Shown: one piece after another, positions 23,756 through 43,240 of the stretch
Layout: every line of letters starts with the position of its first letter
How positions within the stretch are numbered: position 1 is the first letter of the stretch
Position numbers and translations under genes: made by a program
Assembly: GCA_964453605.1 (NCBI GenBank)
Contig: CAYVOI010000001.1
Coordinates: forward strand, 21,182-85,181
Length of the DNA stretch: 64,000 nt
DNA from: an uncultured Gammaproteobacteria bacterium
Lineage (GTDB): Bacteria; Patescibacteriota; Patescibacteriia; Veblenbacterales; UBA10138
Reading direction: 5' to 3'
Notes under the pieces: model-generated
Told to the model about the DNA's origin: nothing
What the model saw: only the letters and a program-made list of their open reading frames with translations
Database searches by the model: none

Positions 23756-24274
23756 TTACAAACCCCTTTGCTGGTGGGTTAAGCCGCAGAGCGCCACTGC
23801 TACAGCGTCAGCTGCGTCATCGGGCTTGGGTGCTTCTTTGAGCTTGAACATAAGCTTCAGCATCTTCTGCACCATGAGTTTATCAGCTCGGCCCTGGCCA
23901 GTGGCGGCAAGCTTTACCTCCTGCGGGCTAAACTCGTAGAGTGGACAGCCGAAGTGGGACACCGTGAGGGTAATAACCCCTCGGGCTTCTGCCACTGCCA
24001 TGGCGGTTTTGACGTTGGTAGAAAAGTACAGCCGCTCCAAGGCAACTCCGGTAGGTTGGTGTTGCTTCAAGAGTTTCTCTACTTCGTGTGTTAGCTCTAA
24101 GAGCCGTTCACTGTGGGGAAGTTTTTTGTCTGTTTCAATACAGCCGAAGGTTATAAGCTTCGGGCTGCTACCACTGCCCGTGAGTACAGCGTAGCCGGTG
24201 CGCCCAAGCCCAGGGTCAATACCCAGGATTCTAACATCAGGCCTGGTTGTCGAAGTGCCCCGTGACATCGTCAT
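23756..24274 (-). CDS. ruvC: Crossover junction endodeoxyribonuclease RuvC
   Basis: ILGIDPGLGRTGYAV and DAADAVAVAL catalytic motifs. Start ATG at 24272-24274 or 24266-24268. Overlaps the end of yebC. Confidence 0.85.
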   Translation of the reverse strand: MTMSRGTSTTRPDVRILGIDPGLGRTGYAVLTGSGSSPKLITFGCIETDKKLPHSERLLELTHEVEKLLKQHQPTGVALERLYFSTNVKTAMAVAEARGVITLTVSHFGCPLYEFSPQEVKLAATGQGRADKLMVQKMLKLMFKLKEAPKPDDAADAVAVALCGLTHQQRGL

Positions 24275-24953
24275 CTGCCTCCAAAGCTTCTCGGAGTTCA
24301 TCAAGCTTTGCCACCACCTTTTCATCCGCCACTTCTACCGTAGCTTTTGGAACCATTTCAAGGTCAGCATAGCCTGGAGTTAGGCCGCTTTGGGCTAACG
24401 CCGCCTTAACTGCCTCCAAGGCCTTAGGTTCACTAGTCACAATGAGCTGGCCTTCTTCGTCAGTGATGTCAGAAGCCCCAGCTTCAATGAGCGCTAGCTC
24501 CAACTCATCGCGACCATTTTGTGGAAGAGGCGCCTGCACAACGCCCTTGAGTTCAAACTGCCAAGCTACAGAGCCGGCTTCGGCCAGCCTCCCACCAGAA
24601 GTGTCGAGTAGGTGTTTGAGGTTGGAGTGGGTGCGGTTCTTGTTGTCGGTCAAGGTTTGAATGAGCATGGCCACACTACCTGGGCCGTAGGCTTCGTAGG
24701 TAATTTCTTCCACCTGTGTACCCTCGCCGCCGCCTGCACCACGCTTTACCGCGCGGTCAATGTTGTCTTTGGGCATGTTGACCTCGCGCGCGCGGTCTAT
24801 AGCGAGCCGGAGTTTGAAGTTCATGGAGGAATCGCCCCCACCTTTGGCCGCCACGGTAATAAGCTTGGCCATTTTCGTAAAGACCTGGCTGCGTTTAGCA
24901 TCAGCCACGCCCTTTTGCCGCTTAATTGTTGCCCACTTAGAGTGTCCGGACAT
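24237..24953 (-). CDS. yebC: YebC/PmpR-family DNA-binding regulator
   Basis: N-terminus MSGHSKWATIKRQKG. The track extension to 25037 is upstream read-through. Confidence 0.85.
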   Translation of the reverse strand: MSGHSKWATIKRQKGVADAKRSQVFTKMAKLITVAAKGGGDSSMNFKLRLAIDRAREVNMPKDNIDRAVKRGAGGGEGTQVEEITYEAYGPGSVAMLIQTLTDNKNRTHSNLKHLLDTSGGRLAEAGSVAWQFELKGVVQAPLPQNGRDELELALIEAGASDITDEEGQLIVTSEPKALEAVKAALAQSGLTPGYADLEMVPKATVEVADEKVVAKLDELREALEADDDVTGHFDNQA

Positions 24954-25035
24954 AAGCCCAGGTATTGTAGCAGCCGGCCCTGGTACTGTCAGCCTTGGCT
25001 TGGTTGGCTCCACTGCCCTTGGTATACTACTAACC

Positions 25036-26103
25036 ATGGCACAACCCTCCTACCTCGATACACCAGAAGCCGCGGCCAGCGTTGACTCAGTGGGCTTACA
25101 CAAAATTTTGCGTGAGTTCCCAGACCAGCTCGAGACGGCCACTCGGGAGTTTGCCAAACTCGAACTACCGAAAGCCTGGGCTGGGGTGACTTCAGTAGTC
25201 TTCTGCGGCATGGGCGGCAGCGCGATTGGCGCAGAGCTAGTGCGAACACTGCCTGCTGCCATGGTCCGCAAACCCTTGAGTGTGGTGCGTGACTACGAGT
25301 TGCCGGCGTACGTTGGGCCTGAAACACTTGTGGTGGTAGTAAGCTACTCAGGTGACACCGAAGAGGCGGTAGCGTGTTTTACTGAAGCTAAGAAACGTGG
25401 CTGCCCGCTGATGGTAGTAACCAGTGGAGGTAAGTTAGCCAAGCTGGCTCGTGAGGCGGACACCACCCTGTACCAGTTTACCTATCAAGCCCCGCCGCGC
25501 GACGCTTTGGGGTTTTTGTTTGCACCGCTGCCCCGGGTGCTTGAAGCAGCTGGCGTGCTGAGCCCAGGCGAGGGAGACCTCGCGAGCGCTATAGGGAGCC
25601 TTAAGGGACAGCAAGCCAGCCTGGCCCCCGAGGCGCCGAGTGCCAAGAACCCGGCCAAGCACTTAGCGTACCAGCTGCTTGACCACGTGCCGCTAGTTAT
25701 TGGTACTGAAGTAACCTCAGGCGTGGCGCGTCGGTGGAAGAACCAGTTTAACGAGCACGCCAAGAGCGCAAGCTTTAGCGAGGTGCTGCCCGAGGCAGAT
25801 CACAATATGGTGGAGGGATTCACTTTTCCCGTGCGTTTCCGTGACGATGTGGTGGTCGTTACCCTGCGCACAAGTTTTGACCAGCCTGACGTGGCGCGCC
25901 GGGTGGGGCTGCTCAAAGACTACCTCCATAAGCAGCACGTAGCTTGCGAGGAAATAACGGCGCCCAAAGGTGATGTGTGGGCGGAGAGGCTGTGTTTGGT
26001 AGCGTTAGGAGATTGGGCCAGTTACTACTTGGCACTCCTTAACCACACTGACCCCTCAGCTATTCCCGCCATAACAGAGCTCAAGGCGAAGCTCAGGGCG
26101 TAA
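25036..26103 (+). CDS. Bifunctional phosphoglucose/phosphomannose isomerase (SIS domain, archaeal-type PGI/PMI)
   Basis: SIS motif VVFCGMGGSAIG and a second SIS half. Start ATG at 25036 (MAQPSYLD). Confidence 0.7.
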   Translation: MAQPSYLDTPEAAASVDSVGLHKILREFPDQLETATREFAKLELPKAWAGVTSVVFCGMGGSAIGAELVRTLPAAMVRKPLSVVRDYELPAYVGPETLVVVVSYSGDTEEAVACFTEAKKRGCPLMVVTSGGKLAKLAREADTTLYQFTYQAPPRDALGFLFAPLPRVLEAAGVLSPGEGDLASAIGSLKGQQASLAPEAPSAKNPAKHLAYQLLDHVPLVIGTEVTSGVARRWKNQFNEHAKSASFSEVLPEADHNMVEGFTFPVRFRDDVVVVTLRTSFDQPDVARRVGLLKDYLHKQHVACEEITAPKGDVWAERLCLVALGDWASYYLALLNHTDPSAIPAITELKAKLRA

Positions 26104-26109
26104 GGCGTT

Positions 26110-27672
26110 ATGGGGTTGTTACAGTGGCTCAACGCGAAGCCTGGGCGGTGGCTGGTGGTGGTCGGCGTTTGTGCGCTGGCCGTGTTTGGGTACCTGCAGC
26201 CACCGGGTATATTTACTGATCCCGATTCCTTTTACCACCTGAGGCTTACGACCATGCTGCGGGATGGCGGTTTGGTTAGGGATTTTCCGTGGACCCAAGC
26301 CGCACTCTACAAAAACATTTTTATCGACCACCATTTTGGCTACCACCTCTTGCTCTTACCGTTTGTCAGTGTGCTGCCAGAGTTTGCCGGCATGCAGGTG
26401 GCCACGGTGGTATTTGCAACATTCTCGGTGCTGGTGGTGGCCTGGTGCCTCAAGCGCTGGAAGGTGCCGTACTGGGGTGTTGGGGTACTCGTGCTCCTAA
26501 CTTCGAGCCCGCTCCTGTTTCGCCTGTCACTGGCTAAAGCGCCGTCTATTGGTGTCGGGGTAGCATTTGTAGCGTACTACCTCATTATTGAGCGGCGTCT
26601 GGGGTGGTTGTTCTGGTGGACGTGGTTTTTTACCTGGCTCTACAGCGCCTGGCCCTTAACGATTGTTATGGCCGGCGTGTACCTTACCATTGATGCACTT
26701 AATGTTAATAAAGTAAGCTTTAGCGCGGCGTGGCAGAGGCTCTGGCGAGTGGAAAATGTAAAACTTATGGGCGTAGTGGCGGCAGGGTGTGTGGCTGGGC
26801 TTGTTATCAACCCGTACTTTCCCACCAACTTACTCTACTTAAAACAGCTTTTTACCATGGCGCTGGTAGCTTACCACAAGTTTATTGGCATTGGGGCCGA
26901 GTGGTACCCCTACGACCCGTTTGAGCTGCCGGCGCACGTTTCCTACCCGCTTCTGGTTTGGTTGCTCGCGACCGTAGCTGGCCTGTTTAGCCTCAAGCGC
27001 CAGAGCACTATGGCTCGCACCAGCTGGGCGATGACGCTTATATTTTTAGCTTACACGTTTCGGGCTCGGCGGCAGGTGGAGTACCTGGTGCCCTGGCTGG
27101 TGCTATCGAGCAGCCTGACCCTCAGGGATTGGGTAGGGAGTGACCTTAGAGCTGCCTGGGCTAGCCTTAAAGCCAAGGCCGACAGTTGGCAGCCAGACTG
27201 GCTTAAGCGGCGGGTGGTGCGCGGCGCTATCGGGCTCTACTTGCTTATTTTTATTCCCGTCGGGCTCTGGCATGGTGTGGAATCAACGCAAGAAGCACTA
27301 CGCGATGGGTTTACTTTTGGTACGCTCCGAGGTGCATCCACATGGCTCAAACAGAACACGCCAGCACATTCGATTGTGTTTCAAACTGACTGGGGAACGT
27401 TTCCCATGCTGTTCTACTACAACACCCACAACTATTACTTGACCGGCCTGGACCAGACATTCATGTACGAGCACAACCACGACCTGTACTGGGCCTGGGT
27501 GAACACCACCTCCGGCGACCGATCAGACGCCTACCACGTGGTGCACGACTTATTTGGTGCGTCCTATGTACTGGTGGAGAAGCGCGTCGGCATCATGCTC
27601 CGGGTGCTGCAGCACGACCCCAGGTTTCACAAGGTGTATGAGGACAAGGAGGCGCTGGTCTTTGCGCTCTAA
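26110..27672 (+). CDS. Polytopic membrane protein (520 aa, about 13 TM); putative GT-C glycosyltransferase
   Basis: First extracytoplasmic loop carries FTDPDSFYHLRLT, reminiscent of the DPxFxxR loop motif of STT3/ArnT-type GT-C enzymes. Embedded in the glycosylation cluster. Confidence 0.5.
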   Translation: MGLLQWLNAKPGRWLVVVGVCALAVFGYLQPPGIFTDPDSFYHLRLTTMLRDGGLVRDFPWTQAALYKNIFIDHHFGYHLLLLPFVSVLPEFAGMQVATVVFATFSVLVVAWCLKRWKVPYWGVGVLVLLTSSPLLFRLSLAKAPSIGVGVAFVAYYLIIERRLGWLFWWTWFFTWLYSAWPLTIVMAGVYLTIDALNVNKVSFSAAWQRLWRVENVKLMGVVAAGCVAGLVINPYFPTNLLYLKQLFTMALVAYHKFIGIGAEWYPYDPFELPAHVSYPLLVWLLATVAGLFSLKRQSTMARTSWAMTLIFLAYTFRARRQVEYLVPWLVLSSSLTLRDWVGSDLRAAWASLKAKADSWQPDWLKRRVVRGAIGLYLLIFIPVGLWHGVESTQEALRDGFTFGTLRGASTWLKQNTPAHSIVFQTDWGTFPMLFYYNTHNYYLTGLDQTFMYEHNHDLYWAWVNTTSGDRSDAYHVVHDLFGASYVLVEKRVGIMLRVLQHDPRFHKVYEDKEALVFAL

Positions 27673-27682
27673 ACCGCTAGCT

Positions 27683-28432
27683 ATGTCGGAAAAGTACCCT
27701 GGGGTTAAGGCGGTTGCGGTACTGCCCGCCTACCACGCCGTGCATACACTGGCCCAAACGCTGGCTGATGTACCAGGTGGCTGGATTGATGAAACAATTT
27801 TAGTTGACGACGCAAGTCACGACGGCACCGCTGAGCTCGCCCGGTCTTTGGGGCTCACGGTATTCGAGCACCCTAAGAACTTAGGCTATGGCGGCAATCA
27901 AAAAACCTGCTACCGTGAAGCGCTGAAGCGCGGGGCCGATATTGTCATCATGATTCACCCTGACCACCAGTACGATCCACGCCTTGTGCCCGAGCTGCTG
28001 CTCCCGCTCATTCGCGGCGATGCTGACGCGGTGTTTGGCTCGCGCATGATGCTCCCGGGCGGAGCCCGTAAAGGTGGCATGCCGTTCTGGAAGTATGTCG
28101 CCAACATTGCCCTCACCAAACTTGAGAACTTGGTCTTGGGGCTCCAGCTCACTGAGTACCACTCGGGGTTTCGCGCTTACTCGCGGCGAGCGCTCGAGGG
28201 CGTGAACTTTCAGGCCAATTCCGACGATTTTGTCTTCGACACCGAAATCATCATTGAGCTCAGGCTCAAGGGTTTTCGTATTCAAGAGGTACCCATTACT
28301 ACACGCTACTTCAAGGGCGCTTCTATGATCAGCTTCCGCCGTAGTGTGCAGTATGGGCTTTCTATTCTCCAAAACCTGGGGCAGTACCTGCTCTTTCGCC
28401 TCCACCTTAAGTCTTATGGCAAGTTCTGTTAG
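27683..28432 (+). CDS. GT2 glycosyltransferase, polyprenol-phosphate hexose synthase type (DPM1/GtrB-like)
   Basis: VDDASHDGT and a DxD-type catalytic core. ATG at 27683 (MSEKYPG). Confidence 0.8.
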   Translation: MSEKYPGVKAVAVLPAYHAVHTLAQTLADVPGGWIDETILVDDASHDGTAELARSLGLTVFEHPKNLGYGGNQKTCYREALKRGADIVIMIHPDHQYDPRLVPELLLPLIRGDADAVFGSRMMLPGGARKGGMPFWKYVANIALTKLENLVLGLQLTEYHSGFRAYSRRALEGVNFQANSDDFVFDTEIIIELRLKGFRIQEVPITTRYFKGASMISFRRSVQYGLSILQNLGQYLLFRLHLKSYGKFC

Positions 28433-28455: not shown

Positions 28456-29724
28456 ATGGCAGCTCTGTTCAGTCTTGTAACTCAGCTCAGGCGTGTGCCG
28501 CTTTCTCCCCGCCGCGCGTTCCTACCGGCTACGTTCGCCGTTCTAGTGTTGGTTATGCTTAGCTTGGCGGCCATGGCCAACTTTACCTTTACCCTGGCGC
28601 AGCACTTTACGTACCTAGCCGAGGCTCTACTCAAGGGTAAGCTCTACTACCTTGAGCTGCCCCTCCCGCGTTGGAATGATATCGCCTGGTACGGCGGCCA
28701 CGCCTACTGGCCCCTGGGACCCTTCCCCGCTGTACTGCTTACACCCTTTGTGTACCTGTTCAGTCTGGTCCACGCTCCGTTCTACCAGGGCTACCTCCAG
28801 TTCCCCCTCGTGCTCGTAACCCTGTACCTTGTGTACCGGCTGGCGCGGTTGGTGGGGTACCACCAAGGTGATGCTTGGTACCTGGGCTGTACATTCTTTT
28901 CCTCCGCGTTTTTCTTCTACGCCTGGGCGCCTACCAGTTACTACATGGCCCACGTGGTGGTCGCCGTCCTCTGGTTCGCTGCCCTCACCGAATACCTTAC
29001 CCGTAGGCGCTACTGGTTTCTAGGGTTACTCTGCGGTCTGGCGCTTACTACTCGCTTGCCAGCGGGTTTGGGCATCGCTTTCTTTGGGCTCGAGCTGTTG
29101 TTTGACAGAACCACCACCACAGGGTTACGCTGGCGCCGCCTAGGTGAACTCGCCACCCCGTTTGTAGTTATGGCCCTCCTCCTCTTGCTCTACAACTACG
29201 CCCGCTTTGGCAGCATCTTGGAGCAGGGGTACTCGTACCAAATCGCCCTAGTCTCGGCAGTTCGGCGTGCCCGTGACTACGGCCTCTTCAGCCTCATTCA
29301 CCTGCCTGGCAACCTCTACTACCTCTTCCTCGCAGCCCCCCAACCCGTATTTCGCGACGGCCTGTCCCATGTGTTGAAGTTCCCCTACCTGAAGCCTGAC
29401 CTCTGGGGTATGAGCATTTTTATCACCTCGCCCTACCTACTCTACCTCTTGGCTCGTCAGACCTGGGACAGAACAGCCACGTGCCTGCTCCTCAGCTGTG
29501 GTATCATCGCCCTCCCCATCCTCCTCTACTACGGCATTGGCTACCAGCAGTTTGGCTACCGCTACGCCCTGGACTTCATGCCCCTACTCTACTTCCTCTT
29601 CCTTAGGCAGTACCGCCTCCAGCACGCCAGGTTGTCGGAGGGGATGAAGGCACTCATGGTAGGGTCGGCCGTGCTCAACCTGTACCTGTTTGTGGGTGTT
29701 TACCTGACCCTGTTCGCGGTTTAG
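28456..29724 (+). CDS. Polytopic membrane protein, GT-C-like mannosyltransferase family, tandem paralogue A (422 aa)
   Basis: Multi-TM protein with the HAYWPLGPFP loop motif. Shares two 100%-identical nucleotide blocks with paralogue B. Confidence 0.6.
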   Translation: MAALFSLVTQLRRVPLSPRRAFLPATFAVLVLVMLSLAAMANFTFTLAQHFTYLAEALLKGKLYYLELPLPRWNDIAWYGGHAYWPLGPFPAVLLTPFVYLFSLVHAPFYQGYLQFPLVLVTLYLVYRLARLVGYHQGDAWYLGCTFFSSAFFFYAWAPTSYYMAHVVVAVLWFAALTEYLTRRRYWFLGLLCGLALTTRLPAGLGIAFFGLELLFDRTTTTGLRWRRLGELATPFVVMALLLLLYNYARFGSILEQGYSYQIALVSAVRRARDYGLFSLIHLPGNLYYLFLAAPQPVFRDGLSHVLKFPYLKPDLWGMSIFITSPYLLYLLARQTWDRTATCLLLSCGIIALPILLYYGIGYQQFGYRYALDFMPLLYFLFLRQYRLQHARLSEGMKALMVGSAVLNLYLFVGVYLTLFAV

Positions 29725-29742
29725 CCCTCTTAGTTTATTTGT

Positions 29743-30993
29743 ATGCAGCGCCTGCAGGATAGGATTCAGCTGGTAGCACAGGTAAGCTTACGCGAGCTTG
29801 CCCCCGTGTTCGTTGGTGGGGTGCTTCTGCTCGTTGTGGGCATACTGAATATGGTTTTGTCTGGGGGTGCACAGCAGTACTCGTACCTAGCCCAAGCTTT
29901 TCTCCGTGGTCAGCTGTATTTTTTGACTGACCCATGGTACCACTGGGTTGATACTGCAGCCTGGGCCGGCCACGCCTACTGGCCCCTGGGACCCTTCCCC
30001 GCTGTACTGCTTACACCCTTTGTGTACCTGTTCAGTCTGGTCCACGCTCCGTTCTACCAGGGCTACCTCCAGTTCCCCCTCGTGCTCGTAACCCTGTACC
30101 TTGTGTACCGGCTGGCGCGGCTCTTGCGGTTCTCTGGTTTAGATGCGCGTTGGCTCGTCCTGGCCTGGTTTACCTCGACCTACTTTTCTATAGCTAGTTT
30201 CCCGATCAGCTACTTTTTTGCCCATGTGGTGGCTGTTACCCTCTTGTTTGCAGCACTCTATGAGTACCTGACCTGGAGACGGCACTGGCTTTTAGGGGTT
30301 TTGTGTGGTTTACTGCTTGCCACGCGTGGGCCAGCTGGTTTAGCAGTCACCTTTTTTATGTTCGATGCCTTGCTCAAGAGTGACAAGTCGTGGCGCGAGT
30401 ATCTTGGACAAACCCTGGAACTGGTAGCACCGTTTGTAGTTATGGCCCTCCTCCTCTTGCTCTACAACTACGCCCGCTTTGGCAGCATCTTGGAGCAGGG
30501 GTACTCGTACCAAATCGCCCTAGTCTCGGCAGTTCGGCGTGCCCGTGACTACGGCCTCTTCAGCCTCATTCACCTGCCTGGCAACCTCTACTACCTCTTC
30601 CTCGCAGCCCCCCAACCCGTATTTCGCGACGGCCTGTCCCATGTGTTGAAGTTCCCCTACCTGAAGCCTGACCTCTGGGGTATGAGCATTTTTATCACCT
30701 CGCCCTACCTACTCTACCTCTTGGCTCGTCAGACCTGGGACAGAACAGCCACGTGCCTGCTCCTCAGCTGTGGTATCATCGCCCTCCCCATCCTCCTCTA
30801 CTACGGCATTGGCTACCAGCAGTTTGGCTACCGCTACGCCCTGGACTTCATGCCCCTACTCTACTTCCTCTTCCTTAGGCAGTACCGCCTCCAGCACGCC
30901 AGGTTGTCGGAGGGGATGAAGCTTTTACTGCTTGGCTCTGGGCTCGTGAACCTTTACCTCTTTGGTACTGTGTACCACATTTTACTCGGTTGA
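29743..30993 (+). CDS. Polytopic membrane protein, GT-C-like, tandem paralogue B (416 aa)
   Basis: Same architecture as paralogue A. The blocks at 29968-30120 and 30430-30921 are identical to 28696-28848 and 29158-29649. Confidence 0.6.
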   Translation: MQRLQDRIQLVAQVSLRELAPVFVGGVLLLVVGILNMVLSGGAQQYSYLAQAFLRGQLYFLTDPWYHWVDTAAWAGHAYWPLGPFPAVLLTPFVYLFSLVHAPFYQGYLQFPLVLVTLYLVYRLARLLRFSGLDARWLVLAWFTSTYFSIASFPISYFFAHVVAVTLLFAALYEYLTWRRHWLLGVLCGLLLATRGPAGLAVTFFMFDALLKSDKSWREYLGQTLELVAPFVVMALLLLLYNYARFGSILEQGYSYQIALVSAVRRARDYGLFSLIHLPGNLYYLFLAAPQPVFRDGLSHVLKFPYLKPDLWGMSIFITSPYLLYLLARQTWDRTATCLLLSCGIIALPILLYYGIGYQQFGYRYALDFMPLLYFLFLRQYRLQHARLSEGMKLLLLGSGLVNLYLFGTVYHILLG

Positions 30994-30999: not shown

Positions 31000-32190
31000 A
31001 TGAAGTTGTTACCATACCATAACGTACCGGTTGGAACGCGGGTTGCCTACGTGGCTGTGGCTGGCCTAGTCTTATGGTCTGGCCTGAGCTACCTCTGGCC
31101 TACGGTACCTGCCTGGCACCACAATGCCATTAACGTATTTCGCGAAGATGTTGACTTTACCACCTACTTCTCTAACCTCGGCTGGCTACAACCAGGAGAG
31201 TTTTTGCTCCACCATGGCTATGCTGAGTATCCTGTGCTGGGTTTGCTCTACGTTAACTGGCCACACTACCTAACCCAGAGCTTTGAGGCCTACCACTGGC
31301 TACTGTGGTTCAGTAATGCTGCTCTACTCGTCCTGAGTATGTGGCTGTGGTTCGGTATAGCTAAGCAGCTCGAGCTCTCGCGCGGCGGCTGGTGGTTGTG
31401 GCTCTTGCCGTCGAGCTTGTACTTTAGCTTGAATCGGTTTGATATTTTCCCCGTCGCCTTAGTGCTCCTGAGTTTGTACTTGTTGGCAAAACGTCATGTG
31501 CGCTTGGCGTGGGTGGTGTACGGGTTAAGTATCATGGCTAAGGTGTACCCGGTGTTCTTGTTGCCGTTCATGTGGCAGCTTTCCCGTGAGCGTGGTGGTA
31601 CGTGGGGCGCCATGATTACCTACACCCTAAGCCCTATTGTTGGATTACTTTTTGGTTTGTACGCTGTGGGCGGGTTCGAAGCTGTAGTAGTGCCGTTCAT
31701 GCTCCAGTTCGGGCGGGCGGTAGACTACGGTAGCCTGCGTGGGGTAGCCGTACAGCTGGGGTTAGGGGTTTCACTGTGGTCGCTACTCTGGTCGTTTGGT
31801 CAGGTACTCTTGCCAGTGTGGTGGGGCTTACGCACGGTGTTTAGTCGCACGCCACTGCCATACCTGGCCGCCATCAGCCTGGCTGCGCTTAGCCTGCTGC
31901 TGCTTACTAACCTGTCCCCCTTCTACTCTAACCAGTGGTGGTTATGGGTCCTGCCATTTGTAGCCTGGGTACTGCCCGCGCCAGAACGAGTGCTGGCGCT
32001 GCTCTATGATTTGGTAAACTATGTACAGTTTCCCTTAGCGTTTGAGCTAGCTGGCAAAACAGGTGGGGTATTTGCTCTGGTGGTTGCTATTCGCGGGGCA
32101 CTCCTCGTTTGGTTACTGGTAGCGTTATGGCAACAGCTTCCTAAGGGTTGGTGGCGTATTGAACCTCTATGGGTACGGTTTGGATTGTAG
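31000..32190 (+). CDS. DUF2029/GT87-like polyprenol-phosphate-mannose-dependent mannosyltransferase-family membrane protein
   Basis: Multi-TM protein with a NRFDIFP...AKVYPVFLLP pattern typical of GT87/DUF2029. Confidence 0.5.
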   Translation: MKLLPYHNVPVGTRVAYVAVAGLVLWSGLSYLWPTVPAWHHNAINVFREDVDFTTYFSNLGWLQPGEFLLHHGYAEYPVLGLLYVNWPHYLTQSFEAYHWLLWFSNAALLVLSMWLWFGIAKQLELSRGGWWLWLLPSSLYFSLNRFDIFPVALVLLSLYLLAKRHVRLAWVVYGLSIMAKVYPVFLLPFMWQLSRERGGTWGAMITYTLSPIVGLLFGLYAVGGFEAVVVPFMLQFGRAVDYGSLRGVAVQLGLGVSLWSLLWSFGQVLLPVWWGLRTVFSRTPLPYLAAISLAALSLLLLTNLSPFYSNQWWLWVLPFVAWVLPAPERVLALLYDLVNYVQFPLAFELAGKTGGVFALVVAIRGALLVWLLVALWQQLPKGWWRIEPLWVRFGL

Positions 32191-32879
32191 TACCAACCTA
32201 CAACGAGCGATTGAACATTACTGAGCTTATAGCGCGAACTTTTGCTGCGCTGCCGATGTGTCAGCTCCTCATTGTTGATGATAACTCACCCGATGGCACA
32301 GGTGTGTTGGTTCGAGAGCTTCAGGCACAGCACCACAACTTGCACCTGCTTGAGCGTTCAGGAAAACAGGGCTTGGGTAGCGCCTACCGCGCCGGGTTCC
32401 GCTACGCCCTGGAACACGGGGCCGGGGTGGTTGGGGAGATGGACGCTGATTTGTCCCACAACCCAGCGGATTTACCAAGGTTATTGAATGCTGTTGAGCG
32501 TGGTGCTGATGTGGTCATAGGTTCGCGTCGTGTGCCAGGTGGTCGGGTGGTAGGTTGGAGTTGGCACCGCCACCTGATGAGCTGGGGGGCCATGGCTCTA
32601 GCTCGTGCGGCACTGGGGCTGACCACGCACGACGTTACCTCAGGCTTCCGTCTGTATACAAAAAAAGCCCTGACGGCTATTCCATGGGCAAAGGTGAAGA
32701 GTGATGGCTATGCCTGGCAGGAGGAGTTGCTGTTCTTGTGCGAGCGCGCAGGGCTAGGGGTGGCTGAGGTGCCGGTAGTATTCGTTGACCGTAGTAGTGG
32801 TGTCTCCAAGCTCAATATTGGTAATGTGATTGAATTCTTCGCCACGGTACTTAGACTCAAGCGTTCTCTTCAAAAATAG
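32169..32879 (+). CDS. Polyprenol monophosphomannose synthase (GT2, Ppm1/DPM1-like)
   Basis: VVPTYNE...VDDNSPDGT...GSR motifs. Overlaps the upstream gene by 22 nt. Confidence 0.8.
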   Translation: MGTVWIVVPTYNERLNITELIARTFAALPMCQLLIVDDNSPDGTGVLVRELQAQHHNLHLLERSGKQGLGSAYRAGFRYALEHGAGVVGEMDADLSHNPADLPRLLNAVERGADVVIGSRRVPGGRVVGWSWHRHLMSWGAMALARAALGLTTHDVTSGFRLYTKKALTAIPWAKVKSDGYAWQEELLFLCERAGLGVAEVPVVFVDRSSGVSKLNIGNVIEFFATVLRLKRSLQK

Positions 32880-32903: not shown

Positions 32904-33308
32904 CTACTGGGGTGGCCCGGTGGCGGTGTAGAGGTTAGAGACGATGAAGTACGAAATAGCGTAGGCGGTAAAAATTATCGCCAGACCAATCACCGCGCCA
33001 GCCAACAACTTTTTAGCTTTACTAATTTTTTCTTCGTTACCAGCCGAGGTCATCCACATAGCACCAGCGTAGATAACAAGTACAACCGCCGCCACACCCG
33101 TGACGCTTAAGACTACGTTAATGATGTTGGCAGTGACAGCAGCTGGTGAGGGCTGGCTGGTGGGGAGCCCTGCCAGGTTGGCGGTTTCTGTGAGCCCATA
33201 GTCAGGTGGCAGATCAGCACTACTAGCGGCCAGCGCGAACGAGAACAGGAGCATGGCGCTGGCCGCTAGGAGACTGCCCAACCGCTGTCGGCGGTTTGGG
33301 GTTTGCAT
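32904..33308 (-). CDS. TrbC/VirB2-like pilin-fold small secreted membrane protein (134 aa)
   Basis: Signal peptide, then two hydrophobic helices separated by the SAGNEEKISKAKKLL loop. Confidence 0.6.
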   Translation of the reverse strand: MQTPNRRQRLGSLLAASAMLLFSFALAASSADLPPDYGLTETANLAGLPTSQPSPAAVTANIINVVLSVTGVAAVVLVIYAGAMWMTSAGNEEKISKAKKLLAGAVIGLAIIFTAYAISYFIVSNLYTATGPPQ

Positions 33309-33316
33309 ACGAAGAG

Positions 33317-33709
33317 TTAGCCTCTGGCTGAAGTTGCGTTGGCGAGCTGCGTGACGATGAAGTAGGCCAAAGCGTAGGCGACAAAGATAATAACCAGACC
33401 AACCACCCCAGCGCCCAAGAGCTTCTTGGCTTCGCCAATCTTTTCCTCATTACCCTGGCTTGTCATCCACTTGAAACCACCAATCAGAATAAGCACCACC
33501 GCAATAACACCGAGGAACCCCAGGAGGATGTTGATGATGTTGGCTACGGTCTGCACCACTGGTACGTTGGTACCGAGGTTAGTGGCAGCACCGAAGTTGT
33601 TAAAACCAAAGTTGGCTTCACCCTGGATACCGGCGGCCAAAACCATAGCGGGCACGGCGTACAGAGCAGTGGAGGCTGCTACTGTTAGGAATTTCTTCAT
33701 AACTTTCAC
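33317..33709 (-). CDS. TrbC/VirB2-like pilin-fold protein (130 aa)
   Basis: Signal peptide; loop motif TSQGNEEKIGEAKKLL between two TM helices. Confidence 0.6.
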   Translation of the reverse strand: MKVMKKFLTVAASTALYAVPAMVLAAGIQGEANFGFNNFGAATNLGTNVPVVQTVANIINILLGFLGVIAVVLILIGGFKWMTSQGNEEKIGEAKKLLGAGVVGLVIIFVAYALAYFIVTQLANATSARG

Positions 33710-33861
33710 CTCCTTTCTCTTGCTCCCAGACCTCGTTTGGTTACCTTGCGTAGCCAGATGAAGAATGGGTTAAGATGAACTGTTAAAATTATACTAACTT
33801 GGTATCTAACCGTCAAACAGTTGCCTGGCTCTAGCTATTGCTACCCAACCTGAGGCCTGGT

Positions 33862-34557
33862 TTAGCTTTGGGTGAGGATGTGGTAGAACGGTCCGTAGAC
33901 AAAGCTGATGAAGATGTACGAGCTCATGACCACTACCAGGCCGATGGTAGCGTAGAGCAGGGTCCGTTTGGCTTTGGCCACGCGTTCTTCGTTGCCAGCC
34001 GAGGTCAGCCAGAGCGTACCACCGTAGACGAACATCAGAATGCTTACGCCCGCCAAGCCCGACAGGATGAAGCCCAACAACCGCTGGCCAAAAAAGACAA
34101 AGCCAGCCTGCTTGGTTGGTAGCTGGTTGAGGTTGAGCGGGTCTATGAGCACGGTGTTGGTGCTGAAGGCTGGTGGCCCAGCGGTGCCGGTGAGTACGGT
34201 AATGGTGGTTGCGAGTATGGCGTAGCTGCCCACGGTTAAGATGAGCCCTAAGATGGCGTAGGTTATCATCTGCTTGCCTTTTTGGAAGTGCTCACTATTG
34301 CCGCCAGCGCTCAGAATGCGGTACCCGCCAAGGATAATAAAAAAGAGTGCCAGGGCGCCGGTTATAAAGTTAATGCCACTGGCTACGCGACCAAAAATTT
34401 CCCACACCGTGACCGTGCCCAGGGGGTTCTGGAGTGCTGTGGGTGGCGTGGCGGCATCATCTGCTCGCGCTGCCAGCGGTATGAGCTGTAAGCCCACAGC
34501 AGTTATAGTCGTGAGGGCTGTTCGTAGTAGGTGCTTCAAGTTCGGGTAGCTGAGCAT
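33862..34557 (-). CDS. Duplicated TrbC/VirB2-like protein (231 aa, two pilin modules)
   Basis: Two copies of the helix / AGGNxE..K.K loop / helix unit (SAGGNSEHFQKGKQ and TSAGNEERVAKAKR). Confidence 0.6.
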   Translation of the reverse strand: MLSYPNLKHLLRTALTTITAVGLQLIPLAARADDAATPPTALQNPLGTVTVWEIFGRVASGINFITGALALFFIILGGYRILSAGGNSEHFQKGKQMITYAILGLILTVGSYAILATTITVLTGTAGPPAFSTNTVLIDPLNLNQLPTKQAGFVFFGQRLLGFILSGLAGVSILMFVYGGTLWLTSAGNEERVAKAKRTLLYATIGLVVVMSSYIFISFVYGPFYHILTQS

Positions 34558-34560
34558 ACG

Positions 34561-35253
34561 TTAGTTGGTGTAGCAGCACTTCAGGTTGTTGGTACAGTAG
34601 CCTGCTTTTTCTGTGTAGGTGGTAGTTGGTGTGCAGTCTGGTAGGCAGGTGTAGGGGTGTGTGGGGTCGCTGGTTAGCGAGCTGCAGGCACGCTGGCCAC
34701 AGGTCTCATCAAAACAGACTAAATCTTCGCCGGTGTCGCCACACGGCGTGCCGTCAGCCTTACCGCGGCAGAACTCGGGGTTAGTTGGCGCCACCGTGCA
34801 CTGCGCCTCCCACCAGGAACTACCAAAGAGTTTTTTGCTTAGGGGCTGGCCTTGGGGGGTGATGAGTATGCCCACTACAACGTTTACAATGAAGTAGCCC
34901 CCCAGCACAATGGCCACACCTACGAGCGTGGCAGTAATGATGCCCTTACCCTTACTGACCCGTTCTTGGTTGCCAGCGGCGCGAATGATGCTCTGCCCGC
35001 CCCACACCAGCATGATGAGGGCTAGCCCGCCAAACAGGGACAGGATAACCTTTTGTAGTACCACCATAAGCCCCACGAAGTCGCACCAGGTACAGTTGCC
35101 GTTCTCGCGGCAATCTTTAGCTAAATTACCAACAATGCCGTTAGTGAGGTTGAAGGCTTGGGCCGAGTGGCTGGGGAGCAGTGGTAGGACTACCGCTGCT
35201 AGTATGGCGACACTAATGAGCGTGCCCAAGGTACGGCGGCGAGACGCGGTCAT
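34561..35253 (-). CDS. TrbC/VirB2-like module fused to a C-terminal Cys-rich (14 Cys) domain (230 aa)
   Basis: RAAGNQERVSKGKG loop module, followed by CTVAPTNPEFCRGKADGTPCGDTGEDLVCFDETCGQRACSS...CLPDC...CCYTN. Confidence 0.6.
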   Translation of the reverse strand: MTASRRRTLGTLISVAILAAVVLPLLPSHSAQAFNLTNGIVGNLAKDCRENGNCTWCDFVGLMVVLQKVILSLFGGLALIMLVWGGQSIIRAAGNQERVSKGKGIITATLVGVAIVLGGYFIVNVVVGILITPQGQPLSKKLFGSSWWEAQCTVAPTNPEFCRGKADGTPCGDTGEDLVCFDETCGQRACSSLTSDPTHPYTCLPDCTPTTTYTEKAGYCTNNLKCCYTN

Positions 35254-36626
35254 AGTGTTACCTTGGCTAAGGTTTGGGTAACCTGTTGGGCGGCAAAATC
35301 CAGCGCCTCGGTAAGGCTCGTACCACTGTCAACGCGGCGGATGAGGTCGAGCATGAACCCCTGGGCCGCCCCCGGGTTGTAGCCCCGGTACCAGGCGCGA
35401 GCGCTGAGGAGCTGCTTCGCTGGCACTGACAGGTCGGGGTCTTGCGTTTGCGCCTGGTACAGCTGGCGCTCGGCCGTGGGGAGCTTAGAATCTGCTACGT
35501 ACTTTTGAGCTTCTTCCGGGCGCACGGCAAAGTGCACAAACCCCCAGGCCTCATTTTGGTACTGGCTCTGCCGCGTAACCGCCGCCACGTTGTAGCTCGC
35601 CAGGTAGGCCGGTCGCACCGTGTTGTCAATCTGCGGGAAGTTGGCCACACCTACCGTAACGCGAGGTGAGCTCTGCTGTAAGCTCTGGTAGTCGCGCCAG
35701 TAGCCAAAGGTGAAGCCGACGCGACCCTCGGCAAAGGCCGTCCAGGCGGGGGGCTCGTCTTTGGACCAGCTGTAGGTTTCCTTGCTCGGGTTAGCAAAGT
35801 CGGTGTAGAACCGCACCGCATCTGCTCCTGGTGAGTAGGTTTCGCCGCCCACCGTGACCTGTTGGTTAAAGGTCGCGCGCGTACCACCGCTGTCCACCAT
35901 TGGCGTGTTGTTCTGTAGCATGAGGGCGGCTAGAATGTCAGCGGCGTAGGGTACGTTGTCAGCCTCACCTAAGCTCGTGCCGCTCTGTAAGAGCCGCCCC
36001 TGCTTGTCGATGCGGGTTATCTTCTGCGCCGCGTTTTTGAAGTCGGTCCAGTTTGCGGGCGGGGTGGCGAAGCCGGCGGCGTTGAGGAGGTCATGGTTGT
36101 AGAACATGACTAGACTGTCGAGGCTCAGGGGGAAGCCGTAGACCTTACCGTCTATCACCACGTCAGGCGGCACCGCGTCAACGAACAGGTCTTGCACAGC
36201 TCGGAGGTCCATGGTAGGCACGGTTTTGAGCGTAGCCGTAGGCTCTTTCTTAATCACACCTTTAAGCTCCAGGAACGGCAGCGTCAGGTTTGGCGGCAGG
36301 GGCAGCAGGTAATCTTGCCAGGCCCTTAGGGAAGTATTCGGTAGCGTGATGAGGTCAGGGCCCTGGGATGCCGCCAGGGCCCTGAGCAGGGTTTGCTCAA
36401 ACTCCTCCGGGCGTACCTGACGGTAGTGGATAGAGATGTTGGGGTGAACCGATTGGTAGTCTGCCAGCACGAGTTTTGTCCCAGCGGGCAGCGCCTCAGT
36501 CCCCCACCAGTTGAGCGCTACCGGCGGCGCGTTGAAGGGTTTCTTGCAGCCTAGGCCAGCCAGGCTTAGGGTGGCGAGGAGTAGGCCCAGGGCGTAACGG
36601 TGGGGGTGGCGAGGTTGGAAGCTCAT
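35250..36626 (-). CDS. Extracellular solute-binding lipoprotein (ABC-transporter family-1 substrate-binding protein, sugar type)
   Basis: Lipobox LSLAGLGC; SBP_bac_1-like length and composition. Confidence 0.65.
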   Translation of the reverse strand: MSFQPRHPHRYALGLLLATLSLAGLGCKKPFNAPPVALNWWGTEALPAGTKLVLADYQSVHPNISIHYRQVRPEEFEQTLLRALAASQGPDLITLPNTSLRAWQDYLLPLPPNLTLPFLELKGVIKKEPTATLKTVPTMDLRAVQDLFVDAVPPDVVIDGKVYGFPLSLDSLVMFYNHDLLNAAGFATPPANWTDFKNAAQKITRIDKQGRLLQSGTSLGEADNVPYAADILAALMLQNNTPMVDSGGTRATFNQQVTVGGETYSPGADAVRFYTDFANPSKETYSWSKDEPPAWTAFAEGRVGFTFGYWRDYQSLQQSSPRVTVGVANFPQIDNTVRPAYLASYNVAAVTRQSQYQNEAWGFVHFAVRPEEAQKYVADSKLPTAERQLYQAQTQDPDLSVPAKQLLSARAWYRGYNPGAAQGFMLDLIRRVDSGTSLTEALDFAAQQVTQTLAKVTL

Positions 36627-37489
36627 ACTACTGATTGTAGGTACTTAGCGAAGGCTTCGGCAAGTTCCGGGTGCCCGAGCCCTAAGGCTACATTGGCTTT
36701 GAGCCACCCCAGCTTACTGCCTAGGTCGTAGTAGGTACCTTCTATTTTACAGGCGTAGACTGGCCGCACCCCACTGAGTTTGGCAATAGCATCTACCAGC
36801 CAAACTTCACCGCCGCGGCCAGGGGTAGTGGCCGCTAGGTGGTCAAAGATGTCGGGCGTCAGTACGTAGCCTCCCAAAGACGCTAGCCGCGAGGGCGCCG
36901 CTCCCGGCCCTGGTTTTTCTATGATGCTATCAACCTGGTAGACGTTGTCCTCCAGCTGGTGCGACTTTATGATGCCGTACTTTTGTGTGCCTTCGTCATC
37001 CACCTCGTAGCCCGTGAGCACTGGCCCGTGGTAGCGTTCGTACACGTCAATCAGTTGTTTAAGCCTGGGCGTTGTACTAAAAATAGGCTCGTCACCCCAA
37101 ATAACGGCGAATGGTTCGTCGCCTATGAGGTGCCGCGCGTTCAGGATGGGCGTGCCGTTACCGTAGGGACCTTTCTGTCGGATGAAGATAAAGTTAGCTA
37201 TATCGGCAATCTGCTTTACCTCTTTGAGCGCGCCAGTCTTGCCCTGCTTCTCGAGCCACGCCTCAAGCTCGGTGGAGTGGTCGAAGTGGTCCTCCACTGC
37301 GCGCTTGGTGGCGCTCGTCACCATGATAATGTCCTCAATGCCGCTCGCCACCGCCTCTTCGACAATGTACTGCAGTATAGGCTTATCAACCACTGGTAGC
37401 ATTTCTTTAGGCTGCGCTTTGGTGGCGGGTAAAAAGCGCGTGCCGTAGCCCGCCACTGGGATGATGACTTTGCGAATTGGTTTTGGCAT
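36623..37489 (-). CDS. galU: UTP--glucose-1-phosphate uridylyltransferase
   Basis: IIPVAGYGTRFLPATKAQPKEMLPVVDKPILQY N-terminal signature. Confidence 0.9.
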   Translation of the reverse strand: MPKPIRKVIIPVAGYGTRFLPATKAQPKEMLPVVDKPILQYIVEEAVASGIEDIIMVTSATKRAVEDHFDHSTELEAWLEKQGKTGALKEVKQIADIANFIFIRQKGPYGNGTPILNARHLIGDEPFAVIWGDEPIFSTTPRLKQLIDVYERYHGPVLTGYEVDDEGTQKYGIIKSHQLEDNVYQVDSIIEKPGPGAAPSRLASLGGYVLTPDIFDHLAATTPGRGGEVWLVDAIAKLSGVRPVYACKIEGTYYDLGSKLGWLKANVALGLGHPELAEAFAKYLQSVV

Positions 37490-37669: not shown

Positions 37670-38908
37670 TTATTGCAATAGTGACAGCAATGCTCTGAGC
37701 GCGGCTTGCTCGCTCGTTACATTCGGACTTACTGCCCGAAGTTCTCGCAAGACCGTATCAATCTTGCCGTCAATGGTTGTCCACATTGCCGGGTCTTTCG
37801 GCTTCAGCCGCGCCTGCGCGTTGTCCCATTCGTATTCCAAATCGCCAATACGTGTTGTAGCGGCAGCTTGGTTGCCGGCATGCAAGAGGTCAAGCGTATC
37901 TTGGGTAATAGTTCGGAACGCGGACAAGTCACCCAGGGGAGAGTTTTGTGACGACTTTGCCATGCCGTTTGGGTTGTTGGTTTGGCTAGTTGCGGCAGGG
38001 GCTTGCAGTGCTGACTGGCGAACATGGTAGCCAACCAGCCCGGCGATAGCAAGTACTGCCACCACCACGGCTGTTTGCCACAGACCATCTCGGCTCGCAT
38101 CTTCAGCGATTTCTGCCTTGATCTCCGCCTTGGGTTCCTTTTCAATAACGTCGCGCTTGGTTACGGAAAGGTATGCCACTATCGCCAGAATGCCGCCGAC
38201 GAAGATGAAGCTGGTGATAGTTGCGCCGAGCCCCAGGCCGCCGTACTTGTGGGGCTGTGAAAGGTAGTCGCCAATCGAAGCCCCGAGTGGTCTGGTTAAT
38301 ATATAAATCATCCAGAATGACAGAACTGGATTAAGCTTCAACCGCCAGCCAATGGTGAACACCGCAATAAGCCCGGCGATAATAAAGCCAGTTGTGGCGT
38401 AGCCGAGCGCCAGGCCCTCCGCCATGAGGTCGCCGGCAGCTGTGCCGAGTGCGAAAGTAAAGAGAATTGCAAGCCAGTAAAATGCTTCCCGCCGTGATGT
38501 AAAAATCGAGTGGATGGAAAGTGTTTTTTCAAAGTAGTACCAAATGAGGAACGTAGCGGCCAAAAGAATACTGAAAATAATCGTGCTCGTTTCCAGCGGC
38601 ACGCCGATTCTATCGGTCAGGTTGTCGGTTACCAGTGTGCCGAATACGCTAATGAGCATCACCGAAATCCAGTAGGTAGTGGGAATGTACTTTTTGGCTC
38701 GGAATTGGAAAAAGAGGGCCACGGCCAGCAATACTCCGGTTACTATGGACGTCCCCGTTAGCCCGAAGTTCAGGTTGACGTTCAGGAAGTCGGCGGCTGT
38801 TTCCCCGACGGTCGTGCACATAATTTTAATAAACCAAAACCAGAGTGTAATTTCTGGCACTTTGTTGAGCATGTGCCCGCCCAATGAGGCTGAATTTTCT
38901 TTTGTCAT
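37670..38908 (-). CDS. Hypothetical membrane protein with four internal ~50-aa repeats (each W..T.G...D.L...) and a ~150-aa C-terminal soluble domain
   Basis: Repeats contain GETAADFL / TDNLTD / GTAAGDLM / GASIGDYL. No family recognised. Confidence 0.55.
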   Translation of the reverse strand: MTKENSASLGGHMLNKVPEITLWFWFIKIMCTTVGETAADFLNVNLNFGLTGTSIVTGVLLAVALFFQFRAKKYIPTTYWISVMLISVFGTLVTDNLTDRIGVPLETSTIIFSILLAATFLIWYYFEKTLSIHSIFTSRREAFYWLAILFTFALGTAAGDLMAEGLALGYATTGFIIAGLIAVFTIGWRLKLNPVLSFWMIYILTRPLGASIGDYLSQPHKYGGLGLGATITSFIFVGGILAIVAYLSVTKRDVIEKEPKAEIKAEIAEDASRDGLWQTAVVVAVLAIAGLVGYHVRQSALQAPAATSQTNNPNGMAKSSQNSPLGDLSAFRTITQDTLDLLHAGNQAAATTRIGDLEYEWDNAQARLKPKDPAMWTTIDGKIDTVLRELRAVSPNVTSEQAALRALLSLLQ

Positions 38909-39738: not shown

Positions 39739-40134
39739 CTATTTCGATTTATCCTTCATTGCCTTGAGACTGGCTTTAACAAGCTTCTTTACCAATGCCG
39801 CGGGAAGCTTTTTGTCCGCCGGGAAACTGACAGTAGCTATTGTTGTAGGGTAGCCCGCGAGTTCTTTTTTGTGGTTTTTGATAACCGGGGGCCACACATG
39901 CAAACGCACATACGGCTGTTTGAAGCTAAACCATGCGAACATACCGTTATAGACATAATCTCCTTCGTAAAAATAGCCCGGCATTTGAAAATAGCTCACC
40001 GTCTCTACGGCATCGGGCGCAACTTGGCGAATCGCCACGCGCGCGCTCTGCAATGCGCCCCGAGCCTCTTTCGGACACTTGGCGATGTATTCACCCACAC
40101 CGCCGGGTTTTATTTCAGATTTCTTCTTTGCCAT
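39739..40134 (-). CDS. DUF1801 (YdhG-like) domain protein
   Basis: VETVSYFQMPGYFYEG...FAWFSFKQPYVRLHV pattern characteristic of DUF1801. Confidence 0.5.
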   Translation of the reverse strand: MAKKKSEIKPGGVGEYIAKCPKEARGALQSARVAIRQVAPDAVETVSYFQMPGYFYEGDYVYNGMFAWFSFKQPYVRLHVWPPVIKNHKKELAGYPTTIATVSFPADKKLPAALVKKLVKASLKAMKDKSK

Positions 40135-40284
40135 AATTATTTCTCCAATATTTTTCTCTCTTATCTATTATGCAGGCACTCGGGTTATGCCGATAAAAAA
40201 TTGTCTTGGCGGTGTACGCGGATTAGATACTCCAACACTACAATGCGTTGAGAGCTTTTTCAAGGGTCAATCGGTGACGACATT

Positions 40285-40971
40285 TTAAGCACGTGGGTCA
40301 GACAATAGTGATGACGGGGGGATTGAATCACTTTGATTCGTGAGATTTACTTCAGCTACAATTTTACCCGACTGATTTGGTTGAACATCATCTAACCTTA
40401 AAGAAAATTTATTTTGTCTCTTGTATGTATCCCTACATTGAGGACAAATAGTGACAATGTATCTGAGCACACTTTCTAATTGGTTAAAGTCAATTGTAGT
40501 CCATAGGGTATGTATAAATTTATCAAGGAAATTCATGTCTAATACAGCAGTGATGTGTTTAGCTTTATCTTTGTCTTCAAAGTAGTTATCACCAGAACCC
40601 CAAACTATATGAAGTCCCTGGGGCCTACCATCGGGGTATCTCAAGGGATTTGTATCCCAATCATCTAATTGAGCTATAAACACATCAAATTTATTTAGAG
40701 AGAGGGCCGGGAAAGATTCTTTGAATATAGGCCAAAGTTTTGTTAGATCATGTTTGATCTTCCAGAGATCCTTTACAAATGTTGTGTCATATAAACTTGA
40801 AGTCTTCTTTTTAATAATGCCTGCTTTTAGCGCGAACTCGACGGAGTGGTGTAAATTATGAACAGAAACATAGGTCAAGCTCATAAAGTTTCCAGTTCTT
40901 CCGAGTAAATAATACTCGACTGAATAAGTACACCAGCTATTAAAAATTCCATGATTATAAGTGTATTCCAT
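40285..40971 (-). CDS. Hypothetical protein (228 aa), strongly AT-rich and likely horizontally acquired
   Basis: GC is roughly 33-35% against a ~55% background. Contains RPQGLH (Rx4H, HEPN-like spacing). Adjacent to tRNA-Ser and to a tRNA-derived direct repeat. Confidence 0.5.
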   Translation of the reverse strand: MEYTYNHGIFNSWCTYSVEYYLLGRTGNFMSLTYVSVHNLHHSVEFALKAGIIKKKTSSLYDTTFVKDLWKIKHDLTKLWPIFKESFPALSLNKFDVFIAQLDDWDTNPLRYPDGRPQGLHIVWGSGDNYFEDKDKAKHITAVLDMNFLDKFIHTLWTTIDFNQLESVLRYIVTICPQCRDTYKRQNKFSLRLDDVQPNQSGKIVAEVNLTNQSDSIPPSSLLSDPRA

Positions 40972-41312: not shown

Positions 41313-41368
41313 GTGAGCTCTACATCGTTTGTAGAGCGTTCACAGTATACGAACGGGGACTAGCTGTG

Positions 41369-42775: not shown

Positions 42776-42782
42776 AGTGCGG

Positions 42783-43238: not shown

Positions 43239-43240
43239 TC

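Follow-up and report, generated by a model that had tools for sequence, protein, structure and literature searches.

Probable segmental gene conversion between ancient tandem paralogues of a GT-C-like glycosyltransferase family in a patescibacterial genome

Genes A and B are adjacent paralogues for GT-C-like membrane glycosyltransferases, located in a stretch of 64,000 nucleotides (the window) from an uncultured bacterium of the GTDB lineage Patescibacteriota (assembly GCA_964453605.1, contig CAYVOI010000001.1, positions 21,182 to 85,181). Gene B is a mosaic, in which two segments of 154 and 492 base pairs (bp) are identical to gene A in every base, while the remainder has diverged from A to saturation at synonymous sites. 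The most probable explanation is that at least two recent, non-reciprocal and homology-dependent transfers from A to B took place between tandem paralogues of ancient origin. The layout of the pair, in positions of the window, is as follows; all features lie on the plus strand.

28456..29724, plus strand: gene A, 422 amino acids (aa), GT-C-fold membrane glycosyltransferase-like protein, putative donor of the converted tracts.
29725..29742, plus strand: spacer between A and B, 18 bp, equal in length to that of the syntenic tandem pair at locus L001 (2338-2355).
29743..30993, plus strand: gene B, 416-aa paralogue, putative mosaic recipient whose B-type sequence is broken by two A-derived tracts.
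28695..28848, plus strand: putative conversion tract 1, A copy, 154 bp, exact match to 29967-30120.
29967..30120, plus strand: putative conversion tract 1, B copy (overwritten), exact match to 28695-28848.
29158..29649, plus strand: putative conversion tract 2, A copy, 492 bp, exact match to 30430-30921.
30430..30921, plus strand: putative conversion tract 2, B copy (overwritten), exact match to 29158-29649.
28849..29157, plus strand: unconverted central segment of A, 309 bp, aa 132-234; B counterpart 30121-30429.
28456..28694, plus strand: unconverted N-terminal segment of A, with the first transmembrane helix (TM1) and the first outer loop including Asp75; B counterpart 29743-29966.

Both open reading frames (ORFs) are intact and have the same orientation. 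The original prediction, which was made from the letters of the window alone, had named two blocks of exact identity at a common offset of 1272 bp. A position-by-position comparison confirmed both blocks and showed that they are in register at exactly this offset; the second had the claimed length of 492 bp, and the first extended over 154 bp instead of 153 bp. Tract 1 encodes aa 80-131, which comprise the end of the first outer loop with the motif WPLGPFPA and the next two predicted TM helices. Tract 2 encodes aa 235-398, with the helix carrying LYNYARFG, a long loop of low prediction confidence and the helices bearing YYGIG..QFGYRYALDF. The divergence that had been predicted for the 309-bp stretch between the blocks and for the N-terminal regions was also found. 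The central segments of A and B are equal in length (309 bp) and identical at 52.8% of nucleotides and 44% of amino acids, with proportions of synonymous and nonsynonymous differences (pS and pN) of 0.75 and 0.38, respectively. The N-terminal 80 aa are only 29% identical and contain an indel of five codons. In the C-terminal 24 aa the identity was 48%, and the final 66 in-register bases were 54.5% identical.

The block pattern is beyond chance. In total, 221 differences were present among 1119 in-register sites, and when the positions were shuffled the longest exact run had a mean of 27 and a maximum of 56, compared with the 492 observed. All third codon positions within the blocks were identical (216 of 216), while only 35% were identical outside. 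According to the Nei-Gojobori method, pS was 0.73-0.84 outside the blocks, which is saturated, and none of about 160 synonymous sites within the blocks differed (0 of about 117 for tract 2 alone). The tract edges were sharp, identity falling from 100% to about 50% over a few bases. Since the flanks are saturated and synonymous change is absent from the blocks, the identity points to recent copying of DNA and not to purifying selection on the protein. The exactness of the blocks and the phasing of the three B-specific segments are as read from the assembled sequence. Tandem Repeats Finder reported no repeat here; its longest period was 500, which is below the period of 1272 bp.

The age of the duplication and the direction of transfer were deduced from orthologues. 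Loci L001 and L002, which come from two JGI samples, have the gene order GT2, copy 1, an 18-bp spacer, copy 2, PIG-M-like gene, GT2 and pilins, and their two copies are only 48-50% identical to each other at the amino acid level. A tandem pair diverged to this degree indicates that the duplication predates these lineages, and on such comparisons the duplication that gave rise to A and B is to be regarded as old. Over its full length A is 65-72% identical to single orthologues in other assemblies (P0002, L001_1 and L003_1). The closest of them, P0002 with 72% identity, was compared with A as protein, segment by segment; the identity was 59% for the N-terminus, 84% for block 1, 74% for the central segment and 76% for block 2. 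To the B-type copies the two blocks were only 58-63% identical. The protein encoded by block 1 was 84% identical to P0002 and 80% to L003_1, compared with 59-63% to B-type copies. For aa 321-398 of block 2 the identity was 72-73% to P0002 and L086_1, compared with 56-58% to L001_2 and L086_2. In the flanks of the tracts, the identity comparison places A with P0002, L001_1 and L003_1 (59-74%), and inside the tracts A and B are 100% identical and both A-type. Gene A is thus A-type in the N-terminal and central segments and in both blocks; the short C-terminal segment barely discriminates between the two types. As both blocks are A-type, B appears to have been overwritten by A, in two pieces. The identity comparisons thus establish A to B as the apparent direction of transfer, and they suggest that A was left unchanged as the donor, which would make the exchange non-reciprocal.

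The segments that are B-specific had fewer relatives. The first-outer-loop segment of B (EL1, aa 46-80) was 66% identical to gene 2 of L086, compared with 43% to A, and it is the only segment of B that is demonstrably old and trans-specific. The central segment of B was at most 50% identical to anything found. A search with the N-terminal half of B gave a best match of 47%, with a limited word index that missed even B itself and L086_2. By exact look-up, A was not encoded on any further contig, and both A and B are singletons in a collection of 15 billion proteins. In a scan of GTDB representatives the closest match was 50% identical among the best 80 loci.

The proposed course of events would start from A and B as ancient tandem paralogues that had diverged to synonymous saturation. 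Very recently, two segments of B (154 bp and 492 bp) would have been replaced by the corresponding sequence of A by intrachromosomal gene conversion, a non-reciprocal form of homologous recombination, with the neighbouring gene as donor. The pathway would presumably be of the RecA/RuvABC type; a gene for RuvC is present in the window. At least two separate events would probably be needed. B would have retained its own N-terminal part with TM1 and the first loop, the central 103 aa and the last helix. Recombination would start and resolve only where the old paralogues still share enough nucleotide identity. If recombination is limited by homology in this way, the tracts are expected in the parts of the family that are most alike, with their left edges at conserved motifs. 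The left edges of the two tracts were indeed located at such motifs (WPLGPFPA and LYNYARFG), tract edges being found at peaks of conservation that also include QFGYRY, and the mean pairwise amino acid identity within the family was 0.42 and 0.44 for the converted blocks, compared with 0.23, 0.34 and 0.36 for the spared segments.

Exact tracts, at other positions, were also present in five further tandem pairs of the family, of which four belong to other genomes and one to another assembly. In total, 165 loci of the family from genome and metagenome collections were compared. For pairs from different genomes with 50-70% amino acid identity, the median length of the longest exact nucleotide run was 14-15 and the 99th percentile 26-27, while the longest run in the A/B pair was 492 bp. 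The tandem pair of L032 (CAWCCP010000009.1) contained exact tracts of 275 and 147 bp. A tract of 93 bp was found in the pair of L001, and the same tract was found in L002, from the second sample. The pair of L086 shared at least 99 bp, running into the contig end, and tracts of 57 and 39 bp were detected in the pairs of L117 and L090, respectively. About 12 other tandem pairs had no such exact tract. In the numbering of gene A the tracts are located at aa 80-131 and 235-398 in the window, 87-117 in L001, 166-258 and 365-412 in L032, up to 252 in L086 and 388-407 in L117. The recurrence of tracts, together with exact blocks on a saturated background, supports the proposal of the original prediction that recombination or gene conversion acts between the tandem copies.

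Recombination between the copies apparently also alters copy number. Positions 1074-2800 of L086 and 3691-5417 of L003 are 99.4% identical over 1728 bp, and this degree of identity indicates that both come from one population. L086 carries a tandem pair in which the 5' 460 bp of gene 2 are B-type, while L003 carries a single gene with an A-type 5' end of 480 bp. In the comparison of L086 1-2800 with L003 3211-5417, the A-type 5' end of L003 was joined to the same 3' part. The gene of L003 therefore looks like the product of a crossover between tandem copies, although the history could also have run the other way, with a duplication in L003 giving the pair of L086. The L086 contig begins exactly inside the shared tract, a place at which assemblers break.

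The original prediction had further suggested that a central cassette of TM helices and loops is kept distinct as a specificity module. This part of the claim was not supported. The central region of L032 is itself homogenised (275 bp, A positions 166-258), the tract positions differ in every lineage, and the spared segments are the least conserved ones. The low homology of these segments can by itself account for their sparing, with no need for selection for a cassette. Selection was nevertheless considered as a process that could be superimposed on conversion: it would shield a specificity cassette (central, N-terminal or both) from homogenisation and so preserve a difference between A and B in donor or acceptor specificity, the rest of the protein being shared. 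Such selection is rather unlikely, although several observations agree with it. The EL1 type of B is old and common to gene 2 of L086, and the first-loop types of A and B survive in two lineages. The first approximately 75 aa, with the invariant Asp75, lie outside every tract in six pairs, and B has an intact frame with all invariant residues. On the other hand, low homology alone predicts which segments are spared, the tracts are so few that the sparing of the N-terminus is not statistically compelling, and the central segment of B has no orthologue by which its conservation could be gauged. The ratio dN/dS is uninformative for A and B, as dS is saturated.

Three other histories were weighed against gene conversion. 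In cycles of unequal crossing-over, an array of three copies with hybrid genes would form and then lose a copy by deletion, and no conversion tracts would be involved. Such cycles would leave the same end state, and a single genome does not distinguish them from conversion; moreover, the comparison of L003 with L086 documents that a single A/B hybrid, or conversely a pair, arose within a population of 99.4% identity. However, a mosaic B next to a wholly A-type A in exact register at 1272 bp would require at least four precisely placed crossovers, for which two short tracts are the more economical solution, and the short tracts (39-93 bp) that stand alone in L001, L117 and L090 resemble conversion tracts and not products of crossovers. 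This history is therefore considered improbable. An error of assembly or polishing, in which alleles of two strains were placed side by side or paralogous stretches were made uniform during consensus formation or bubble-popping, would render the exact identity or even the second copy spurious; it is more improbable still. The genome is derived from a metagenome, exact repeats of 154 and 492 bp are hard for short-read assemblers, and the contig of L086 ends inside such a tract. Yet the junction, with a unique 3' end of A, the 18-bp spacer and a unique 5' end of B, must be represented in the reads, and L001, L002 and L086 share this layout. The phasing of A is coherent, since its N-terminal and central segments are of the A type and match P0002 and L001_1, which were assembled independently. 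Polishing does not produce an abrupt fall from 100% to about 50% identity. Mosaics of the same kind were found in separate assemblies, namely L001 and L002 (two different samples), L032, L086, L117 and L090. The assembly collapse that the original prediction had offered as an alternative is unlikely for the same reasons, and because a collapse lowers the copy number and does not create a tandem pair. The least credible history is a recent duplication of the whole gene A, after which three segments of the new copy diverged rapidly or were replaced by imported foreign DNA. About half of the gene is taken up by identical blocks, and the N-terminal and central segments of B lack a close relative in the databases, as such a history would have it. 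It is contradicted by the old, diverged tandem pair, which is ancestral (48-50% amino acid identity in L001; also L086), by the orthology of the B EL1 segment to gene 2 of L086, by synonymous saturation, which excludes divergence in place after the duplication, and by the differences themselves, which include indels and lack the adenine-specific mutation pattern of retroelements.

Several points weigh against the preferred reading of recent transfers from A to B. The two tracts are 309 bp apart, with about 53% identity between them, and this demands two events or a more complex history; the end state, as mentioned, is shared with unequal crossing-over. The central segment of B had no close orthologue in the searches made. 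The blocks are known from the assembly alone, and sequences that were merely similar to near identity could have been made identical during assembly or polishing; the host contig of A and B is a single piece of 876,493 bp. Finally, all matches of A and B in Pfam and NCBIfam were below threshold, as described below. Two further candidates were rejected. A diversity-generating retroelement, or rapid divergence after duplication, was ruled out by synonymous saturation, by the indels and by the orthology of divergent segments to other species. A mobile insertion common to both genes was ruled out because the blocks encode the conserved core of the family in frame.

To characterise the family, 521 homologues were collected from a search of 5.8 billion proteins. 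Almost all of these had no name, and the named ones were mostly from Patescibacteria (Woesebacteria, Moranbacteria, Kuenenbacteria and others). The family is common in Patescibacteria. Its members have about 420 aa and about 10 TM helices and are devoid of a large soluble domain. Gene A had no match in Pfam, and gene B matched DUF2079 with 12.5 bits, compared with a cutoff of 28.2. Both scored 19-20 bits against the NCBIfam model NF047440 (LA_3751/LA_3752 putative glycosyltransferase), which has a cutoff of 200. This name was presumably taken from two consecutively numbered locus tags. Like A and B, the proteins of NF047440 and DUF2079 are polytopic putative glycosyltransferases, and they were the best, though weak, family matches; the scores are nevertheless far below the cutoffs, and A and B are hence not members. 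By the curated thresholds, neither protein belongs to the PMT, GT87, PIG-M Mannosyl_trans, DUF2079 or LA_3751/LA_3752 families. A profile search of the PDB sequences with the family gave nothing relevant and one spurious match to SecG.

At the level of the fold the assignment was clearer. A polytopic membrane fold with the conserved GT-C transmembrane module was found for the family, so that the predicted fold of A and B is GT-C, and the label "GT-C-like" of the original prediction is justified at this level. A and B differ from the known members of the GT-C superfamily (Pmt1/2/4, ALG3/9/12, AglB/STT3/PglB, ArnT, PIG-M, PimE, AftA/B/D and Emb) in that they are only 9-15% identical to the PDB matches, have a size of about 420 aa without a large soluble domain and reach no family threshold. 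Asp75 was invariant in 25 members of the family. In the structural model it is placed in the loop after TM1, between the helix 50-59 and the strand 77-79, and it is a candidate for the catalytic residue. Gene B keeps all 35 invariant residues of the family. Fold and gene context suggest that A and B are glycosyltransferases that depend on polyprenyl-phosphate sugars, act on the outer face of the membrane and belong to an operon for surface glycans or glycoconjugates. In the literature nothing was found on this family, nor on GT-C enzymes in Patescibacteria.

Local arrays of family members were also observed elsewhere. In Woesebacteria RIFCSPLOWO2_01_FULL_39_61 (L014/L097) and in L036 and L021, three to five members or fragments were located within 7 kb, and apparent split or truncated copies were present in L014 at 2432-2887 and 3005-3700. 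The family seems to be prone to local expansion and decay.

The genes surrounding A and B in the window are as follows.

23756-24325: RuvC resolvase gene.
26110..27672, plus strand: 520-aa polytopic membrane protein, intact ORF without Pfam or NCBIfam match.
27683..28432, plus strand: upstream GT2 gene, Pfam Glycos_transf_2 (6e-18), resembling a polyprenyl-phosphate hexose synthase.
31000..32190, plus strand: PIG-M/GT87-like gene resembling GT-C mannosyltransferases, directly 3' of B, Pfam Mannosyl_trans (PIG-M) at 1.3e-7, which is above the cutoff, and GT87 at 5.7e-5.
32169..32879, plus strand: second GT2 gene, Pfam Glycos_transf_2 (2.4e-30), with matches to NCBIfam AglJ, PpgS and ArnC-like models.
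32904-35253, minus strand: four consecutive small membrane proteins, Pfam T4SS_pilin/TrbC (PF18895, PF04956).
36623-37489, on the strand opposite to the A/B cluster: nucleotidyl transferase.
41369-42919: Wzx-like protein.

The plus-strand genes from the 520-aa protein through GT2, A, B and the PIG-M-like gene to the second GT2, which is the final gene, read like an operon. The 520-aa protein is about 26% identical to A and B and is syntenic in L083 (521 aa) and L003. The upstream GT2 showed sub-threshold matches to the NCBIfam models for AglJ, PpgS and dolichyl-phosphate hexose transferase, and it probably makes the lipid-linked sugar donor. Its mechanically predicted ORF (27554-28432) begins at a TTG overlapping the preceding gene. 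The true start is likely the ATG at 27683, which gives a protein of 249 aa with the same length as its counterparts in L001, L003 and L083. The second GT2 also resembles a polyprenyl-phosphate sugar synthase. The pilin-like genes adjoin the glycosylation cluster, and this adjacency is kept in L001, L003 and L083; the T4SS-pilin-like proteins could be acceptors of the GT-C enzymes. A gene for a solute-binding protein is also located on the opposite strand. Scans for promoters and terminators in the region 25.5-33.5 kb gave background levels only, and the Rfam scan of the window detected only tRNAs.

In L083 (3092-9272), a relative with 57% identity, the island that separates the gene for the 521-aa protein from those for the pilins has other contents. 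It comprises genes for GT2, an MptA/B-like protein of 412 aa, a methyltransferase, a protein of 387 aa and a further GT2, together with one member of the family; the difference in content indicates that the glycosylation island is variable between lineages. In the window, two large polytopic proteins had no Pfam or NCBIfam family, namely that at 16483-18207 (minus strand, 574 aa) and the 520-aa protein at 26110-27672 (plus strand), and both may be additional GT-C-like enzymes. An ORF for a bacterial PGI-like protein (24760-26103) overlaps a gene of the YebC family on the other strand (24237-25037), and the real start of the PGI-like protein is probably further downstream than 24760. A membrane protein of 412 aa with four DUF347 repeats (2e-60) and a C-terminal soluble extension is encoded at 37670-38908 (minus strand). 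The G+C content was lower (0.47-0.49, compared with about 0.55 elsewhere) in two stretches, at 6000-10000 near two tRNA-Ala genes and one for tRNA-Arg (7.6-9.6 kb), and at 40000-42000 near a gene for tRNA-Ser (41.2 kb). An ORF of 228 aa (40285-40971, minus strand) is present in the latter stretch, and both stretches could be islands. Five tRNA genes (Gly, Phe, Pro, Lys and Arg) are clustered within 2 kb at 43167-45140 (minus strand), and all 11 tRNA genes of the window are on the minus strand.

Gene conversion and concerted evolution of prokaryotic paralogues are well established, for example for tuf, for the rRNA operons and for 26 genes that were shown to undergo full-length, long-lasting homogenisation, partial cases having been explicitly left for the future (PMC6053082). 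Interlocus conversion of bacterial paralogues, including tufA/tufB and the rRNA operons, was reviewed by Santoyo and Romero (2005, as cited in PMC6053082). The A/B pair resembles these cases in that paralogues within a genome are closer than orthologues, synonymous sites included, and in that the process, which is non-reciprocal and dependent on homologous recombination in those cases (PMC6053082), would probably be so here. It differs from the cases of that study in that conversion is segmental, with two tracts in a saturated pair, in that the genes are directly adjacent and in that they belong to an uncharacterised GT-C-like family of the candidate phyla radiation (CPR). The pair has paralogue-identical tracts with sharp edges on a diverged background, and the identity comparisons with the orthologues show tracts and flanks to be incongruent. 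The mosaic is regarded as an established process in a new gene family, and it reveals no new mechanism.

Mosaic genes made by recombination are known from surface loci, such as pilE/pilS and opa in Neisseria and the mosaic glycosyltransferases of capsule and O-antigen loci. These share with A and B the segmental exchange between related copies of genes for the cell surface. In contrast to systems of the pilE/pilS type, the A/B locus has no silent cassettes and no dedicated recombination sequence, but two expressed-looking copies in one operon, and programmed or high-frequency switching is unsupported. Pmt1 and Pmt2 are known to work as a heterodimer. It is conceivable, though unlikely, that segmental conversion and unequal crossing-over recurrently shuffle modules in episymbiotic CPR bacteria, by joining a catalytic-loop module (EL1 of the old A or B type) to a shared C-terminal module, and so diversify surface glycans from strain to strain, or that A and B form a heterodimer whose interfaces are maintained by conversion ("paralogue interference"). 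If one of these were true, the mosaic would be adaptive and not incidental.

CPR/Patescibacteria have tiny genomes, and to our knowledge recombination within them is little documented. If confirmed at the read level, the A/B pair would be a clean and datable example of segmental gene conversion in such a genome. The analysis also draws attention to an abundant GT-C-fold family that has hundreds of homologues but lacks a Pfam model, and whose genes often occur in tandem beside those for a lipid-sugar synthase and pilin-like proteins. As contigs break inside the tracts, such loci call for caution in annotation and binning. Copies of the family appear to swap segments and to fuse between closely related strains, and this bears on the variation of the cell surface in episymbionts.

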